The notes: generated by a model not told the origin, from the letters alone. A DNA stretch of 64,000 nucleotides from a virus (IMGVR_UViG_3300035150_000164:1-64000); one strand, 5' to 3'. Shown: positions 4,613-62,417, counted from the stretch's first letter. Numbers and translations: made by a program.

Positions 4613-4626
4613 CGAACTTAAGTTCG
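4613..4626. repeat. Dispersed palindrome
   Basis: CGAACTTAAGTTCG, intergenic. Confidence 0.9.
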
Positions 4627-4631
4627 CATAA

Positions 4632-4976
4632 TTAATCCAAAGGACACCCAGGAAGTTTCGGCAAACCTGGCAAATTAGGTATCGCTGGAAGACTAAACGG
4701 AATCTGTGGTATCGGTATAGCTAATTTCGGTGTCGGTAAAGATATACTGATTCCTGGTATACTTACACTTATACCTATAGTAGGTAATTTAGGAATCGCA
4801 GGAAAACTAAACGGAGGTTGTGGTATAGGTATCGATATCTTCGGTATCGGCAAACTAACATTTGGTATATTAGGAACGCTTGGCAAAGTAGGTATCGCAG
4901 GGAGACTGAATGGTGGCTGCGGTATCGGTATCGATATCCTAGGTATCGGTAGAAATGGTATCCTGCATCTACTCAT
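4632..4976 (-). CDS. Pro/Ile-rich repeat protein in the baseplate cluster
   Basis: Three copies of ~LPIPKISIPIPQPPFSLPAIP; start overlaps the spike stop (ATGA). Confidence 0.6.
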   Translation of the reverse strand: MSRCRIPFLPIPRISIPIPQPPFSLPAIPTLPSVPNIPNVSLPIPKISIPIPQPPFSFPAIPKLPTIGISVSIPGISISLPTPKLAIPIPQIPFSLPAIPNLPGLPKLPGCPLD

Positions 4977-5926
4977 GGAATAAATACCTTTTCACTTAAT
5001 TCTTTGTAAAGCATAGGAGGAGGTGTAGCACCTGGTGTTGTAGGAGACCCAGGGGGGCCACTAGTATGCTGATGTATTAGTCCCCATCCCAATGCAAAAG
5101 CATTCCCTCTAACAAGTGGCTGGCTGGCACCCTTCCCAAGCATTACAGTTCCTGCGTCAGCATTAAATTGTTTAGCACAATTTGCTACTACATTGTCACC
5201 AGTTAATAAAATATCCTTTCCATCTATCCCTATAGCACCTCCTGATTTAGTCATCAGCGTGATCTTATCATCTCCCAAAAACAACATTGATAATACATTA
5301 CCCTGATCATCCAATGTCTGAATAGTCGTCTCATCGTCTTCTGCATTCATGTATACCATAGACCCTTTATCATTAGTAATTAGAGTGTTTCCATCTTTCG
5401 TTAGGCTTATAAATTGAGATGTAGGTTCTCCCTCACCATCTCCTCTAGCGATAGTTATCTCAAGATTATCTGGATCATCATTAAATCTAATAAAATGACC
5501 GGACTTCGTTCTTATGCCCCTCTTCGAGGGGCCAACATCTTCTATATCGTCAGAATGAAATGTATCTGCAGTCTGATTTGTAGTTATAAACCCTCCCATA
5601 TAAATGGGACTCTTTGGATCTCCAAATTCAAATTGCACCCAAATATTCGTACCAATATCTGGAGGATGAAACATCCCAGTAGTTTGACCATCTGGTGTTG
5701 TTCCCATGCCATTCATACTCGGCATCATCCAAAATTTACTCGGCACATCTGATTCTTTCGGCATATAGATAGCTGGACAAGTTGCCCTTACACGCCCTCT
5801 GTTATCTGGATCATTGTTGTCTATAACCCTACCTGGATAGGTACCATAATATCTACCACAAAAACGCTCTAGACCCCTCGTGACATCTCCGAGATAATCC
5901 CTCAACCAATTCAATACAACACTCAT
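4973..5926 (-). CDS. Baseplate central spike (gp5/gpV OB-fold)
   Basis: YPGRVIDNNDPDNRGRVRA, PPDIGTNIWVQFEFGDPKSPIYMG, IRTKSGHFI, C-terminal HQH. Confidence 0.9.
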   Translation of the reverse strand: MSVVLNWLRDYLGDVTRGLERFCGRYYGTYPGRVIDNNDPDNRGRVRATCPAIYMPKESDVPSKFWMMPSMNGMGTTPDGQTTGMFHPPDIGTNIWVQFEFGDPKSPIYMGGFITTNQTADTFHSDDIEDVGPSKRGIRTKSGHFIRFNDDPDNLEITIARGDGEGEPTSQFISLTKDGNTLITNDKGSMVYMNAEDDETTIQTLDDQGNVLSMLFLGDDKITLMTKSGGAIGIDGKDILLTGDNVVANCAKQFNADAGTVMLGKGASQPLVRGNAFALGWGLIHQHTSGPPGSPTTPGATPPPMLYKELSEKVFIP

Positions 5927-7233
5927 TGCATCTGACCACCCTTCGTTTCTTTCTTTTCATCAGCTGTAGATTTTGTACCACGACGATGTACGTTAAGTGT
6001 CATATCCCATGTACCTAAACCCCAAGAATGTACAATTTTGTCAATATAATACGGTCCATCATAAATCAATCCAGCCATATGAAGATGACATATATTACCT
6101 ACTTTTTCTTCATTATGACCTATCGTTGCTATTTCCATTTGTAAACCAGGATTACCATACTGGTTAAATTGCTTAACTTGGTACTCAAATAATTTAGAAC
6201 CACCTGGTAATAATGGAGCACTAATAAACGTAGCAGATCTTTCATCACCCTTTAAATTATCTATAACATATCTCTCAAACTCAGCATCCTTTGGTTTGAG
6301 ATCTTTCGGTACATCATTCTCTATAGTTCCTACAATAGCCTCTTCGCTATCTTCAGGAGATGTTATTATCTCTACATCTTCACCAGTTTCTTTGTCTATA
6401 GCAGTTGCCTCAGTTCCACTAGCAGCAGCACTCGCATTTCCAGTTACCCAACCTATCTCATCTCCTTGTGGCGTAAAAGAATAGCAAGGATACTGATGAT
6501 TTCCATGATCTATTCCACCTCTAATTACATACTTATTTGAAACACCAGAATTATCAGCCAAAATACCCTTTGTCTGATCTTCTATAGTACAAACAGTCAA
6601 ATATTTTATGCTGTTTTTCGTAACAATTACAAATTTACAATAGTTTTCTTTACATATTGTTTTCAATGCATCCCAAACACTTTTATTAGCTAAACCACCA
6701 TAAAATTCATCTCCATTAATTTCATCTGAAGATGAATCAAGATTTTCACGAGCCCTATCTGTTATATCTACTTTCATACCGAGATCTGATACCAAACCTT
6801 CTATCCATTTTACAGCATCGTTTCCAGCAGTATCAAAAAGAGTCTTTGACACAGTGTATCCAAGAGACTTAATAGGAATTGGATTAATATCTATAGACCC
6901 AGAAAGACCATCTGGAGTCATACTTAACCCCTTGGCACCATTAACCATATTACCGTAGTACCAATCTATAAATCCACCACTTGCATATCCTATACGTGCC
7001 TTTACATAGTTTTTTTGCTTAAATGGCGTATCATTTGGATTCATTATCTTCAATGCATAATCATAGGGTATATCAAGTCCTATTATAAACTTCTCTATAA
7101 CCATCTCTCCACCAAATGTCATAGATACAGAAGTCAAAAATGGTAAACCTCCAGGACCTAAATTCCACCTAGTTCCACTCTCCCAATCTACTATTACTAC
7201 CTGAGCAATAGGATCTGTAAAAAGAATACTCAT
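5923..7233 (-). CDS. Baseplate hub (gp27 / late control D-like)
   Basis: Synteny; IGY motif and C-terminal YDGPYYIDKIVHSW...MTL. Confidence 0.75.
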   Translation of the reverse strand: MSILFTDPIAQVVIVDWESGTRWNLGPGGLPFLTSVSMTFGGEMVIEKFIIGLDIPYDYALKIMNPNDTPFKQKNYVKARIGYASGGFIDWYYGNMVNGAKGLSMTPDGLSGSIDINPIPIKSLGYTVSKTLFDTAGNDAVKWIEGLVSDLGMKVDITDRARENLDSSSDEINGDEFYGGLANKSVWDALKTICKENYCKFVIVTKNSIKYLTVCTIEDQTKGILADNSGVSNKYVIRGGIDHGNHQYPCYSFTPQGDEIGWVTGNASAAASGTEATAIDKETGEDVEIITSPEDSEEAIVGTIENDVPKDLKPKDAEFERYVIDNLKGDERSATFISAPLLPGGSKLFEYQVKQFNQYGNPGLQMEIATIGHNEEKVGNICHLHMAGLIYDGPYYIDKIVHSWGLGTWDMTLNVHRRGTKSTADEKKETKGGQMQ

Positions 7234-7610
7234 CGTTCTATATAATTACTAACCTGTGCCAATAACTTACTATCAATCCAGTTTTTAGACGGTATTTTTA
7301 ACCGCGTTCCTTTGCGTATTGATACATCCGGTAAATCTAAATTGTTTCTAGCCGCTATTACCCAATACAACTCTTGCCTATCAATACCCCAAAATCTAGC
7401 GGCCATCTTATCCAACCTATCATTTGGGTCCTCTACTATATATGTCCTCTCTTCCTCTTCTACTCCATCCCAGTTAGGCATTTCAAACATCATACGAAAT
7501 CTAACCAATTGTTCTGTATCCTTATCATATATCAATTGTTCAGGCATAAAATTCATAAATGAATATGGACGTGCTTTTAAAGTGTTCTTTCTTGGTTTTG
7601 GCTCAGACAT
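7230..7610 (-). CDS. LysM/tail-X-like baseplate protein
   Basis: DRLDKMAARFWG...LYWVIAARNNL...GTRLKIP. Confidence 0.8.
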   Translation of the reverse strand: MSEPKPRKNTLKARPYSFMNFMPEQLIYDKDTEQLVRFRMMFEMPNWDGVEEEERTYIVEDPNDRLDKMAARFWGIDRQELYWVIAARNNLDLPDVSIRKGTRLKIPSKNWIDSKLLAQVSNYIER

Positions 7611-7619
7611 ATAATCCCC

Positions 7620-61464: not shown

Positions 61465-61562
61465 ATTTCACCTAACAACTTGTGAATATTTATACTGTAT
61501 ATTTTGGCCATATTATTCATTCGCTCGGGGGGTTTTATAATTTTTGCCCGTTTTATACATCT

Positions 61563-61796
61563 TTATTCATCTGTATTCTGCCAATCCAATAGCGCTATAT
61601 TTAGCTCTAGGTTTTTCTTCCTCTGTTCTTCGGAAACTTCATCATATCCAAGATCCCTAAGACAATCTTCTCTAGTTTTCCTATCTATATAAACAAAAGC
61701 CAATCCACTGCACCTAGTACATGTCGTACTTGAAGACCAAAACTTTAACGCAAAAATATAGCTACATTCAGTACATTTAAAATGTGTTATCTTCAT
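61563..61796 (-). CDS. Zn-ribbon-like small protein
   Basis: CTEC...CTRC. Confidence 0.55.
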   Translation of the reverse strand: MKITHFKCTECSYIFALKFWSSSTTCTRCSGLAFVYIDRKTREDCLRDLGYDEVSEEQRKKNLELNIALLDWQNTDE

Positions 61797-61982
61797 TTAT
61801 TCAACTACTTGCAAGTGTCTTACTGGCTTATCTTTCCCTGTATAAAAAAAAGGAATAGATCCGTTATTAGGTGGTTTATCCATATATCCAACCCATTTCC
61901 TCTTCTTTATACTCCACTGTATGTAATTAACCCATACAGGTATCTCAAACTCAACAGAAGCTATCATTTTTCTTTCTTCCAT
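61797..61982 (-). CDS. Hypothetical protein
   Basis: Abutting neighbours. Confidence 0.5.
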   Translation of the reverse strand: MEERKMIASVEFEIPVWVNYIQWSIKKRKWVGYMDKPPNNGSIPFFYTGKDKPVRHLQVVE

Positions 61983-61984
61983 AT

Positions 61985-62389
61985 CTAATCTTCCTTGTCA
62001 AACCAGACAGTTTCTAACTGCTCGTAATCATCTTTCAATAGAACAACAAAACAACTATACCTACCTAAATCTGCCGCAATAACAGAAAAACCCTTAAACC
62101 TTGGAAACTCAACCTCTGTAATTTCCCCACCATCATCCAAATACAAAGTATTTTCCGAATAACCAAAGGCGATACTTGGTATTCCTTCGCTACTTCCATA
62201 AGCAATCGAATCAGCATTCTTTGTATGAAAATCCATCTCAAGAACTTTCACATTATCTTCATCAACAACTAACGTGCAAGTATTTATCCTTACACGTCCT
62301 TTAATAGATATTCTTGCTATATCAACCTTATTGTACCATAAATTCGAGCATCTCCGTCTTGACTTAGATTCTCCACAAACTCTATCCAT
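61985..62389 (-). CDS. Hypothetical protein
   Basis: AGGAG RBS. Confidence 0.6.
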   Translation of the reverse strand: MDRVCGESKSRRRCSNLWYNKVDIARISIKGRVRINTCTLVVDEDNVKVLEMDFHTKNADSIAYGSSEGIPSIAFGYSENTLYLDDGGEITEVEFPRFKGFSVIAADLGRYSCFVVLLKDDYEQLETVWFDKED

Positions 62390-62403
62390 CTAATTCTCCT
62401 ACA

Positions 62404-62417
62404 CGAACTTAAGTTCG
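62404..62417. repeat. Dispersed palindrome
   Basis: CGAACTTAAGTTCG, intergenic. Confidence 0.9.

Follow-up and report, generated by a model that had tools for sequence, protein, structure and literature searches.

The window analysed here comprises the first 64,000 nt of a 74.8-kb contig from a large uncultured phage whose genome is transcribed almost wholly in one direction and that encodes a T4-like set of virion genes. Between the genes of this contig, at a density of about one copy per 3–4 kb, lies a short palindrome, CGAACTYRAGTTCG, present in 17 exact copies in the window against none in 100 dinucleotide-preserving shuffles. The initial annotation, made from the sequence alone, had listed 19 copies, and we recovered them all at the same positions: the 17 exact ones and two one-base variants, CGAACTTGAGTTCA (minus strand) at 43291 and TGAACTTAAGTTCG at 56887. 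Past the window, further exact copies at 64998, 65153, and 70431 bring the contig total to 20. The arms do not vary among sites, and the spacer always reads T-NN-A, T6 and A9 being constant. Across six genomes, a purine precedes and a pyrimidine follows the 14-mer in 165 of 166 sites, and given these invariant flanks the true unit is not the 14-mer but a symmetric 16-bp DNA palindrome, R-CGAACT-NN-AGTTCG-Y.

Of the 17 exact copies in the window, 14 lie between genes, although only ~15% of the DNA is intergenic (binomial 1e-9), which bears out the initial description of a motif found mostly at gene junctions; the other three (19269, 41030, and 44742) fall inside an ORF or at its end. Typically, a stop codon is followed by 0–12 nt, the palindrome, 11–19 nt and the next start codon—a spacing so tight that it leaves no room for a promoter. 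The site at 4612..4627 (centre TTAA) lies 5 nt past the stop of 4632..4976 and upstream of 4112..4540, and that at 10785..10800 touches the 10800..10946 stop codon and lies immediately upstream of the tape-measure gene (7620..10775). Both a stop and a start are close by at 29328..29343 (12 nt past the stop, 13 nt before the start of 28629..29315), 30732..30747 (2 and 17 nt; start of 30443..30715), 33105..33120 (3 and 16 nt; 32505..33089), 34000..34015 (5 and 14 nt; 33123..33986), and 57575..57590 (2 and 25 nt; 57368..57550). Downstream of the first of these, 28629..29315 lies in an operon leading to the tail sheath. Other copies precede a start codon by 33 nt (49735..49750, before 49442..49702; 55083..55098, before 54337..55050), 24 nt (58292..58307, before 57870..58268), 18 nt (54295..54310, before 53993..54277) or 14 nt (62403..62418, before 61985..62389), while 43838..43853 separates 43880..44155 from 43351..43809. 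The 51-aa ORF at 43134..43289 is indeed bracketed by two copies (43112 and 43291), as had been noted: the exact site 43111..43126 sits 8 nt past its stop and upstream of the portal gene (41380..43074), and the variant 43290..43305, whose last arm base on the minus strand is A, lies directly upstream of it. The second variant (56886..56901), which on the minus strand has T at the first arm position, is found between 56902..57072 and 56420..56872. As for the copies touching ORFs, 19268..19283 lies within 19204..19542, a conserved 112-aa gene; 41029..41044 is internal to 40510..41379, the gene after the portal gene, where it is read as R-T-Q-V-R; and 44741..44756 occupies the 3′-terminal part of 44737..44940, and 44177..44731 starts 10 nt farther on.

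The array is real and conserved across a T4-like phage lineage. Related phages of ~160–195 kb, with major capsid proteins ~60% identical, contain 22, 40, 26, 28, and 29 copies (a reversed-pattern control gave 0), most of them in the gap that separates a stop codon from the ribosome-binding site after it, in support of the earlier proposal of a genome-wide functional signal at gene junctions. Moreover, the spacing of the palindromes is more regular than that of random gene junctions (CV 0.63, p 0.009; 0.65, p 0.002; 0.37, p 0.001; 0.83, p 0.048). The central dinucleotide is specific to the lineage—TG/CA, TA, CG, or CC/GG—and in G012 all 28 of 28 sites have a TCGA centre in a genome of 33.6% GC. 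Orthologous junctions in G001 also carry a copy for the sites at 4612..4627 (at 170999), 10785..10800 (1044), and 29328..29343 (24057), and a variant copy for 34000..34015 (36396). Likewise, 16 of the 29 sites in G014 have an orthologous G001 site, mostly with another centre, at 71% nucleotide identity. The intragenic site at 41029..41044 recurs at the same position with the same codons in G000, G001, G002+G003, and G006, the string CGA ACT CAA GTT CGY being identical in four genomes of 40–56% GC; G014 has a copy with a TCAA centre at the matching position, and G012 reads CGA ACT CGA, its CGA centre giving RTRVRE. The sites are thus under selection at the nucleotide level, with the centre altered in place at orthologous positions.

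Because so many copies occupy conserved orthologous junctions with the centre changed in place, the palindromes are old rather than copied in. This bears on the proposal that they mark recombination or mobility, either as boundaries of gene-cassette exchange akin to PeSLs—composite terminator/promoter modules that flank indels in T4-type phages (PMC2839356, PMC4122927)—or as a small self-spreading palindromic element, which we consider the least probable of the readings weighed here. Five small genes between TerL (the large terminase subunit) and portal, interleaved with four copies in the window, are absent from G001, and the hyperplastic region at 48–66 kb is dense in copies; PeSLs, too, are repeated intergenic motifs of T4-like genomes that are denser in hyperplastic regions, and a few of the palindromes here precede a sigma70-like promoter. 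At nine sites in four genomes the palindrome is followed, after 6–22 nt or in one case 62 nt, by a TTGACAA –35 box, an order of stem and then promoter that resembles a PeSL (PMC4122927). However, of the 93 canonical sites in four genomes, just 11 have a TTGACAA box within 100 nt (nine downstream, two upstream), no other promoter-like motif is enriched, and, unlike PeSLs, most copies lack a promoter and those in relatives lack a terminator U-run. Nor are motif junctions significantly enriched at synteny breaks over conserved adjacencies (one of 16 pairwise genome comparisons reached p 0.049, uncorrected), contrary to the cassette-mark idea of the initial annotation. The sites have no conserved flanks and no target duplications, and no integrase or resolvase was found, the three complete relatives containing neither a tyrosine nor a serine integrase.

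Whether the motif is read as RNA or as DNA can be judged from its symmetry. A strand-biased closing pair had been proposed as a signal, and its window counts are accurate: on the minus strand, the 17 exact copies are flanked by G..T (11), A..T (5), or G..C (1), and never by A..C. Yet this bias is weak, since base composition alone yields zero A..C with P ~0.04, and the rule breaks down elsewhere: all three copies past the window have A..C flanks, as do 7/22, 8/40, 6/26, 2/28, and 8/29 sites in the relatives. The bias is a composition effect of the AT-rich contig that is absent in relatives. The centre is more informative. On the coding strands of G001, G002+G003, and G006, it is TTGA 39 times, TCAA 37 times, TTAA five times, and never TCGA; the bases at positions 7 and 8 depend strongly on each other (Fisher 8e-18), whereas orientation relative to the coding strand is random (p 0.91). 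Equal use of TTGA and TCAA alongside the absence of TCGA in these three relatives argues for recognition of double-stranded DNA; an oriented or symmetric regulator site was among the options first proposed.

The same data make it very unlikely that the motif acts as a hairpin in polycistronic mRNA, be it a processing site, an element that stabilises the 5′ or 3′ end, or a translational operator adjoining the Shine-Dalgarno sequence; its reader might be a conserved KH-domain (KhpA-like) phage protein. Such a core protein is encoded (PF13083, E 1e-12), the motif is always transcribed, it typically ends 11–19 nt before a start codon and adjoins the Shine-Dalgarno sequence, it also neighbours tRNA genes in relatives, and T4 is known to use intercistronic hairpins. 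The predicted stem, however, is 5–6 bp long, is worth –3.3 to –6.7 kcal/mol, folds equally well in sense and antisense, and was not extended past the 16-mer in any folded site. The invariant arms show no covariation or compensatory changes, the A..C flanks that are common in relatives cannot pair in RNA, a U-run 3′ of the motif occurs only in the AT-rich contig, and indifference between UUGA and UCAA loops in three genomes that never use UCGA is sensible only for duplex DNA. The tetraloop hairpin put forward earlier is therefore disfavoured.

Given these observations, we infer that the palindrome is a docking site on double-stranded DNA, and probably one for a dimeric protein encoded by the phage lineage itself. 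A two-fold symmetric dimer would bind the 16-bp site; the phage keeps 20–40 such sites, distributed fairly evenly along its genome in the only room available, the gaps from a stop codon to the following ribosome-binding site. Once bound, the protein may act as a roadblock that punctuates or insulates transcription units, or it may organise or bridge the phage chromosome.

Among described systems, the 17-bp repeat of Cluster O mycobacteriophages is the nearest analogue, in kind though not by homology; in Corndog it reads TGTTCGG-NNN-CCGAACA and occurs 34 times (PMC4351075). Both arrays consist of some 30 palindromes per genome with invariant inverted arms, distributed genome-wide, mostly intergenic, not tied to promoters, and with a central asymmetry unoriented to transcription; in both cases the phage is not obviously temperate and binding by a dimeric protein is predicted. 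The phages are unrelated, Mycobacterium siphoviruses in one case and T4-like myoviruses in the other; the repeats differ in sequence and in geometry (7+3+7 there, 6+2+6 with R/Y flanks here), and neither concerted, lineage-specific change of the centre at orthologous sites, nor differently spelled versions in distant relatives, nor over-even spacing has been reported for Cluster O. Stoperators, the L5/Bxb1 repressor sites of Cluster A mycobacteriophages (PMC4351075, PMC6550527), likewise number some 20–30 short sites per genome, act on double-stranded DNA and lie in short stop-to-start gaps within long co-directional operons, where many of the palindromes are found as well. Stoperators, however, are asymmetric and oriented with transcription, whereas our sites are palindromic and orientation-random (TG 39 versus CA 37), and their ligand is the immunity repressor of a temperate phage, whereas the three complete relatives lack an integrase.

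The arms raise a more specific alternative, namely that the binder could belong to the LexA family. The initial annotation was right that they match the GAAC-N4-GTTC core of Gram-positive LexA boxes: the B. subtilis-type consensus is CGAAC(n)4GTTCG (PMC4551915), and all ten of its defined positions are matched in every site, that is, in the 17 exact window copies and in 166 14-mers from six genomes. The sites would then be operators bound by a host LexA of Gram-positive type, by truncated phage homologues, or by both; such homologues, consisting of the DNA-binding domain only, would be non-cleavable, and the effect would be to link the phage programme with the SOS state of the host, to titrate LexA, or to take its place. 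There is precedent in GIL01, which uses host LexA together with the LexA homologue gp6 (PMC4551915, PMC6182141), a truncated phage protein that binds a palindrome (PMC6182141). Three of five well-covered relatives encode a LexA DNA-binding domain: G001, G002, and G006 have PF01726-only proteins of 146, 159, and 96 aa (E 2.7e-16 in G001) in which the Peptidase_S24 domain is absent, and G011:C2 encodes another. One relative was also binned with a Dehalococcoidales MAG whose own lexA has CGAACTAATGTTCG just upstream, but such binning is weak evidence, as another relative was binned with an archaeon.

On balance, we regard LexA-family operators as unlikely. The arrays persist where no LexA-like gene was detectable, in the complete G014 (29 sites) and the ~168-kb G012 (28 sites), and the G001 gene lies within an indel relative to G014 and is not syntenic in G006. 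Conversely, of 79 other phage loci with a gene for such a protein, 74 contain no exact CGAAC-N4-GTTCG copy; among phages with these proteins, only three clade members have arrays. Instead of the graded arm and spacer variation expected of one LexA regulon, the palindromes show a uniformity well beyond that of an SOS regulon, with T6 and A9 fixed and a lineage-specific centre that includes the GC-rich CG and CC/GG, whereas the centre of the putative host box is TAAT. Nor do they show the promoter overlap or adjacency of LexA operators: in GIL01 the boxes are few and lie within promoters, and gp6 binds a different palindrome at –43.5 (PMC6182141), as opposed to 20–40 non-promoter sites here. Finally, distant relatives display the same architecture with arms that do not spell a LexA box. 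Simple binding of host LexA is thus an improbable general mechanism.

Dispersed palindromes also serve cellular organisers. RacA (ram), Noc (NBS), SlmA (SBS), and MatP (matS) organise or bridge bacterial chromosomes through 12–16-bp palindromes present in tens of copies over the replicon, binding as dimers that combine an HTH or winged HTH with an oligomerisation or coiled-coil part. To our knowledge, no such system has been described for a phage genome. Returning to a dimeric protein of phage origin, our leading, still tentative candidate has a comparable make-up: it is a core protein, encoded outside the window at contig positions 73631–74224, in which a MerR-type winged helix-turn-helix accompanies a long coiled coil. 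Its AlphaFold model (pLDDT 78) comprises two long helices and a winged HTH, and in Foldseek its fold is matched best by MerR-family regulators and by the DNA-binding domain of RacA (E ~0.01, probability ~1.0). The cellular organisers themselves have known roles in segregation and division. The protein is present in G000, G001, G002, G006, G012, and G014, was not found in the partial records G004, G005, and G013, and is absent from the unrelated, LexA-like-bearing G007, a co-occurrence confounded by phylogeny because it is one of ~53 core genes. Two features count against it: the HTH is near-identical in G001 and G014 despite their TG/CA and CC/GG centres, and the recognition helix differs among genomes with the same arms.

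Searching with this protein, an approach that carries an ascertainment bias, led to more distant phages with palindromes of the same geometry but other spelling. One distant homologue-bearing contig (the record of L286, 19.6 kb) had no array, whereas others contained CGCAAG-CG-CTTGCG eight to nine times in 110 kb, GCAAT-YR-ATTGC five times in 42 kb, and TTCGCA-N-TGCGAA four to five times in 15 kb. In the first two of these records, several copies adjoin a stop codon or immediately precede a ribosome-binding site.

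The window belongs to a contig of 74,765 bp with an estimated completeness of about 40% (IMG/VR), and practically all contig genes lie on the minus strand. A contractile-tail virion module is encoded, comprising baseplate wedge, tape measure, a 930-aa sheath, a gp23-like major head protein, prohead protease, portal and large terminase (TerL). In capsid searches, the closest cultured capsids were those of distant T4-like phages (25–32% identity), and no near-identical DNA was found among the cultured phages searched. Capsid relatives in the genome collection belong to MAGs that carry the labels Dehalococcoidales and "uncultured archaeon", a host hint by binning only. 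TerL and portal of the window measure 686 and 564 aa (44924–46984 and 41380–43074), as opposed to 1096 and 1289 aa in the related genome G001 (47751–51041 and 43878–47747), where the extra length represents large insertions, possibly inteins.

The palindrome pattern CGAACTYRAGTTCG matched 17 times in the window and never in shuffled sequences, so the motif count of the initial annotation holds; the whole contig contains 20 matches, plus one-base variants at contig positions 43291, 56887 and 72704. The placement at gene junctions was likewise borne out, with 14 of the 17 window copies intergenic compared to about 15% intergenic DNA (p about 1e-9). Typically, a stop codon is followed after 0–12 nt by the palindrome, then by 11–19 nt including a Shine-Dalgarno sequence, and then by the start codon. 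Across six genomes, the 14-mer core had a purine on its 5′ side and a pyrimidine on its 3′ side in 165 of 166 cases, which makes the unit a DNA palindrome of 16 bp, with arms CGAACT and AGTTCG around a two-base centre. The same annotation had reported that the closing pair is never A-C on the transcribed strand. This is true within the window, albeit marginal given base composition (P about 0.04), and fails outside it: all three contig copies beyond the window are A..C, as are two to eight sites in each relative. The strand bias of the closing pair is therefore not real. A literature search for the exact 14-mers returned matches to shRNA loops only.

Capsid searches led to a clade whose major capsid proteins are 57–66% identical, and we read several members in full. 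Counting the motif in relatives, as had been proposed, gave 22 sites in G001 (176 kb, terminal repeats), 40 in G002+G003 (overlapping pieces of one ~171-kb genome), 26 in G006 (157 kb, terminal repeats; contig C2 of MAG G011 represents almost the same phage), 28 in the four phage contigs of MAG G012 (168 kb, 33.6% GC) and 29 in G014 (195 kb, terminal repeats). The reversed-pattern control scored zero in every phage record, and 10 and 1 in the whole assemblies of MAGs G011 and G012, respectively. Single 16-mer matches in many IMG/VR contigs are at chance level, with eight of ten records checked whole having one copy each. Counterparts in G001 exist for 6 of the 20 contig sites and for 16 of the 29 sites of G014, the latter at 71% nucleotide identity. 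One conserved palindrome-bearing junction lies upstream of the gene for a KH-domain core phage protein (KhpA/KhpB type, E 1e-12; G001 110558–110872, that is L027:10558–10872, minus strand, and orthologues).

Is the element read as RNA or as DNA? The initial annotation had listed an RNA hairpin among its readings, and the transcribed palindrome can be folded into a 5–6-bp stem with a tetraloop (–3.3 to –6.7 kcal/mol). However, the stem never extends beyond the 16-mer, sense and antisense forms behave alike, and the two main centres are used equally, so that the hairpin reading was not supported. On the coding strand of G001, G002+G003 and G006, we counted 39 TTGA, 37 TCAA, 5 TTAA and 0 TCGA centres; positions 7 and 8 depend strongly on each other (Fisher 8e-18), and the orientation of the centre is random (p 0.91). 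TTGA and TCAA are one and the same duplex site (central step TG/CA) in two orientations, whereas UUGA and UCAA loops are different RNA sequences. That both of these loops should be accepted, and UUAA or UCGA not, is hard to see for RNA, arguing that the element is read as duplex DNA. It is best explained, from its sequence pattern, as a double-stranded DNA site for a two-fold symmetric protein. Long hairpins of the RNase III type were rejected, as the stems do not extend, and so were intrinsic terminators, since a T-run 3′ of the motif occurs only in the AT-rich contig and the relatives mostly have C.

The centres differ between lineages. They are TG/CA in G001, G002+G003, G006 and the partial record G013, TG/CA plus TA in the contig, CG at all 28 sites of the AT-rich G012, and mostly CC/GG in G014. 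An intragenic site in the gene after the portal gene reads CGA ACT CAA GTT CGY (R-T-Q-V-R), with identical codons in the contig, G001, G002+G003 and G006; G014 carries a copy at the matching position with the same TCAA centre, and G012 has CGA ACT CGA (R-T-R). Taken together, orthologous retention, lineage-specific centres and identical intragenic codons indicate that the sites are old and under constraint at the nucleotide level, their centres having been re-tuned in step within each lineage—a pattern that points to a binder whose centre preference differs between lineages. Such change in place also argues against recent copy-and-paste spread. The proposed role as gene-cassette or recombination mark was rejected: in the synteny-break check, palindrome junctions were not significantly enriched at breaks. 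Locally, five small genes absent from G001 lie between TerL and portal (window 43134–44940), interleaved with four palindrome copies, and this stretch is a local hyperplastic spot.

The sole other enriched intergenic motif was the strand-specific GTTGACAAA, a sigma70-type extended –35-like box present in about 16–20 copies per genome (contig and relatives, e.g., G001, G002 and G006), which probably marks host-sigma early promoters. Nine palindromes lie 6–22 nt (once 62 nt) upstream of it, but most of the palindromes overall have no promoter. A T4-type late promoter was rejected because its motif TATAAATA was neither enriched nor strand-biased and because a start codon 11–19 nt away leaves no room for one. 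Palindrome copies also directly flank phage tRNA genes (G002 44521, G002 49239 and G003 57806), so a site need not accompany a translation start. Compared with randomly chosen gene junctions, sites were more evenly spaced (CV 0.63, 0.65, 0.37 and 0.83; p 0.009, 0.002, 0.001 and 0.048); in the contig itself, evenness by this comparison was not significant. Stoperators likewise sit between a stop and the next start, but they are asymmetric and come from temperate phages. Since no integrase or resolvase was found in three complete relatives, lysogenic silencing of the stoperator type appears unlikely.

Among the 53 core genes common to G001, G002+G003, G006 and G012, one encodes a protein of 167–197 aa that joins a MerR_1-type HTH to a basic half forming a coiled coil. 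Its contig copy lies outside the window, at 73631–74224 on the minus strand (L149:9631–10224). The protein occurs in every well-covered array-bearing genome, G014 included; searches of the partial records G004, G005 and G013 did not recover it, and the unrelated G007 lacks it. [quoted passage not shown] By way of this protein, we found distant phages with dispersed palindromes of the same 6+2+6 geometry in their own spelling: CGCAAG-CG-CTTGCG (8–9 copies; record of L289, 110 kb), GCAAT-YR-ATTGC (5 copies; record of L287, 41.7 kb) and TTCGCA-N-TGCGAA (4–5 copies; record of L290, 15 kb). In the L289 and L287 records, the two whose contexts we inspected, several copies adjoin a stop codon or just precede a ribosome-binding site. 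None of the re-spelled palindromes is a LexA box, and the putative recognition helix of the MerR-like protein differs in each distant lineage; the phenomenon as a whole thus seems to be a trait of the phage lineage whose specificity co-evolves. Co-occurrence of protein and array is confounded by descent and by the way the distant contigs were found. Furthermore, the HTH is almost identical in G001 and G014 despite their differing site centres, and no array was seen in one distant contig with a homologue.

The best explanation of these sequence patterns, in our view, is a docking site on duplex DNA, in which a dimeric protein of the phage lineage would dock on the dispersed palindromes. Among described cases, the 17-bp dyad repeat of Cluster O mycobacteriophages comes nearest, with 34 copies, invariant arms, a centre without orientation to transcription, no link to promoters and a predicted dimeric binder (PMC4351075). 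More tentatively—and we regard this as possible rather than probable—the T4-like lineage may possess a chromosome-wide system in which a dimeric protein, perhaps the MerR-like one, sits on 20–40 evenly spaced, co-evolving palindromes and insulates transcription units or folds the chromosome. If true, phages would have their own equivalent of the RacA/Noc/MatP-type organisers, or else a kind of stoperator control that is symmetric and non-lysogenic. Dispersed invariant palindromes have been reported in few phage groups, such as Cluster O, and never explained. The present lineage offers useful handles: many genomes at 33–56% GC, sites kept at orthologous junctions, a short list of candidate binders, a genome-wide in-step switch of the centre and re-spelled sites in sister lineages. 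Work on this lineage could also reveal whether protein roadblocks or chromosome organisers are employed by large virulent phages on their one-directional genomes.

The initial annotation had noted that the core matches the Gram-positive LexA box; in full, the arms and the length of the spacer are those of the B. subtilis-type LexA consensus CGAAC(n)4GTTCG (PMC4551915). A PF01726 search of the relatives retrieved proteins with a LexA DNA-binding domain in G001 (146 aa; L028:19268–19708, minus strand), G002 (159 aa; L033:6963–7439, plus strand) and G006 (96 aa; L268), none with an S24 peptidase domain. In this respect they resemble gp6 of GIL01, likewise a truncated LexA homologue, which activates a late promoter and has a palindrome as its binding site (PMC6182141). 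As a universal binder, however, the phage LexA-like protein was rejected: its gene is missing from both G014 (complete) and G012 (near-complete), which have arrays, and in G001 it belongs to an indel when compared with G014. The three genes are non-syntenic and of differing lengths, that of G006 being located elsewhere than that of G001, whose region falls outside the coverage of the contig. Of 79 other phage loci encoding LexA-like proteins, 74 had no exact CGAAC-N4-GTTCG copy, and no array of this motif was found outside the clade among such loci. Covariation of the recognition helix with arrays was also rejected, as phages share the STNGV..HL helix whether or not they carry arrays. Simple binding by host LexA was not supported either: the sites do not coincide with promoters, their spacer varies far less than that of an SOS regulon, and distant phages carry non-LexA arrays. 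In the one putative host lexA box (Dehalococcoidales MAG, assigned only through binning), the spacer is TAAT. That the CGAACT branch resembles LexA sites may be coincidence or a secondary cross-connection. Within the chromosome-wide system suggested above, this branch might also be wired to host LexA, or to truncated LexA genes that the phages have captured. For regulon predictions this is a caution: as the arms are identical to those of the Gram-positive SOS box, LexA-box scans will flag these phages with or without LexA involvement. A provirus record with a LexA-like gene (G010, L096) contains four CGTGACATGTCACG-like palindromes in 17 kb.
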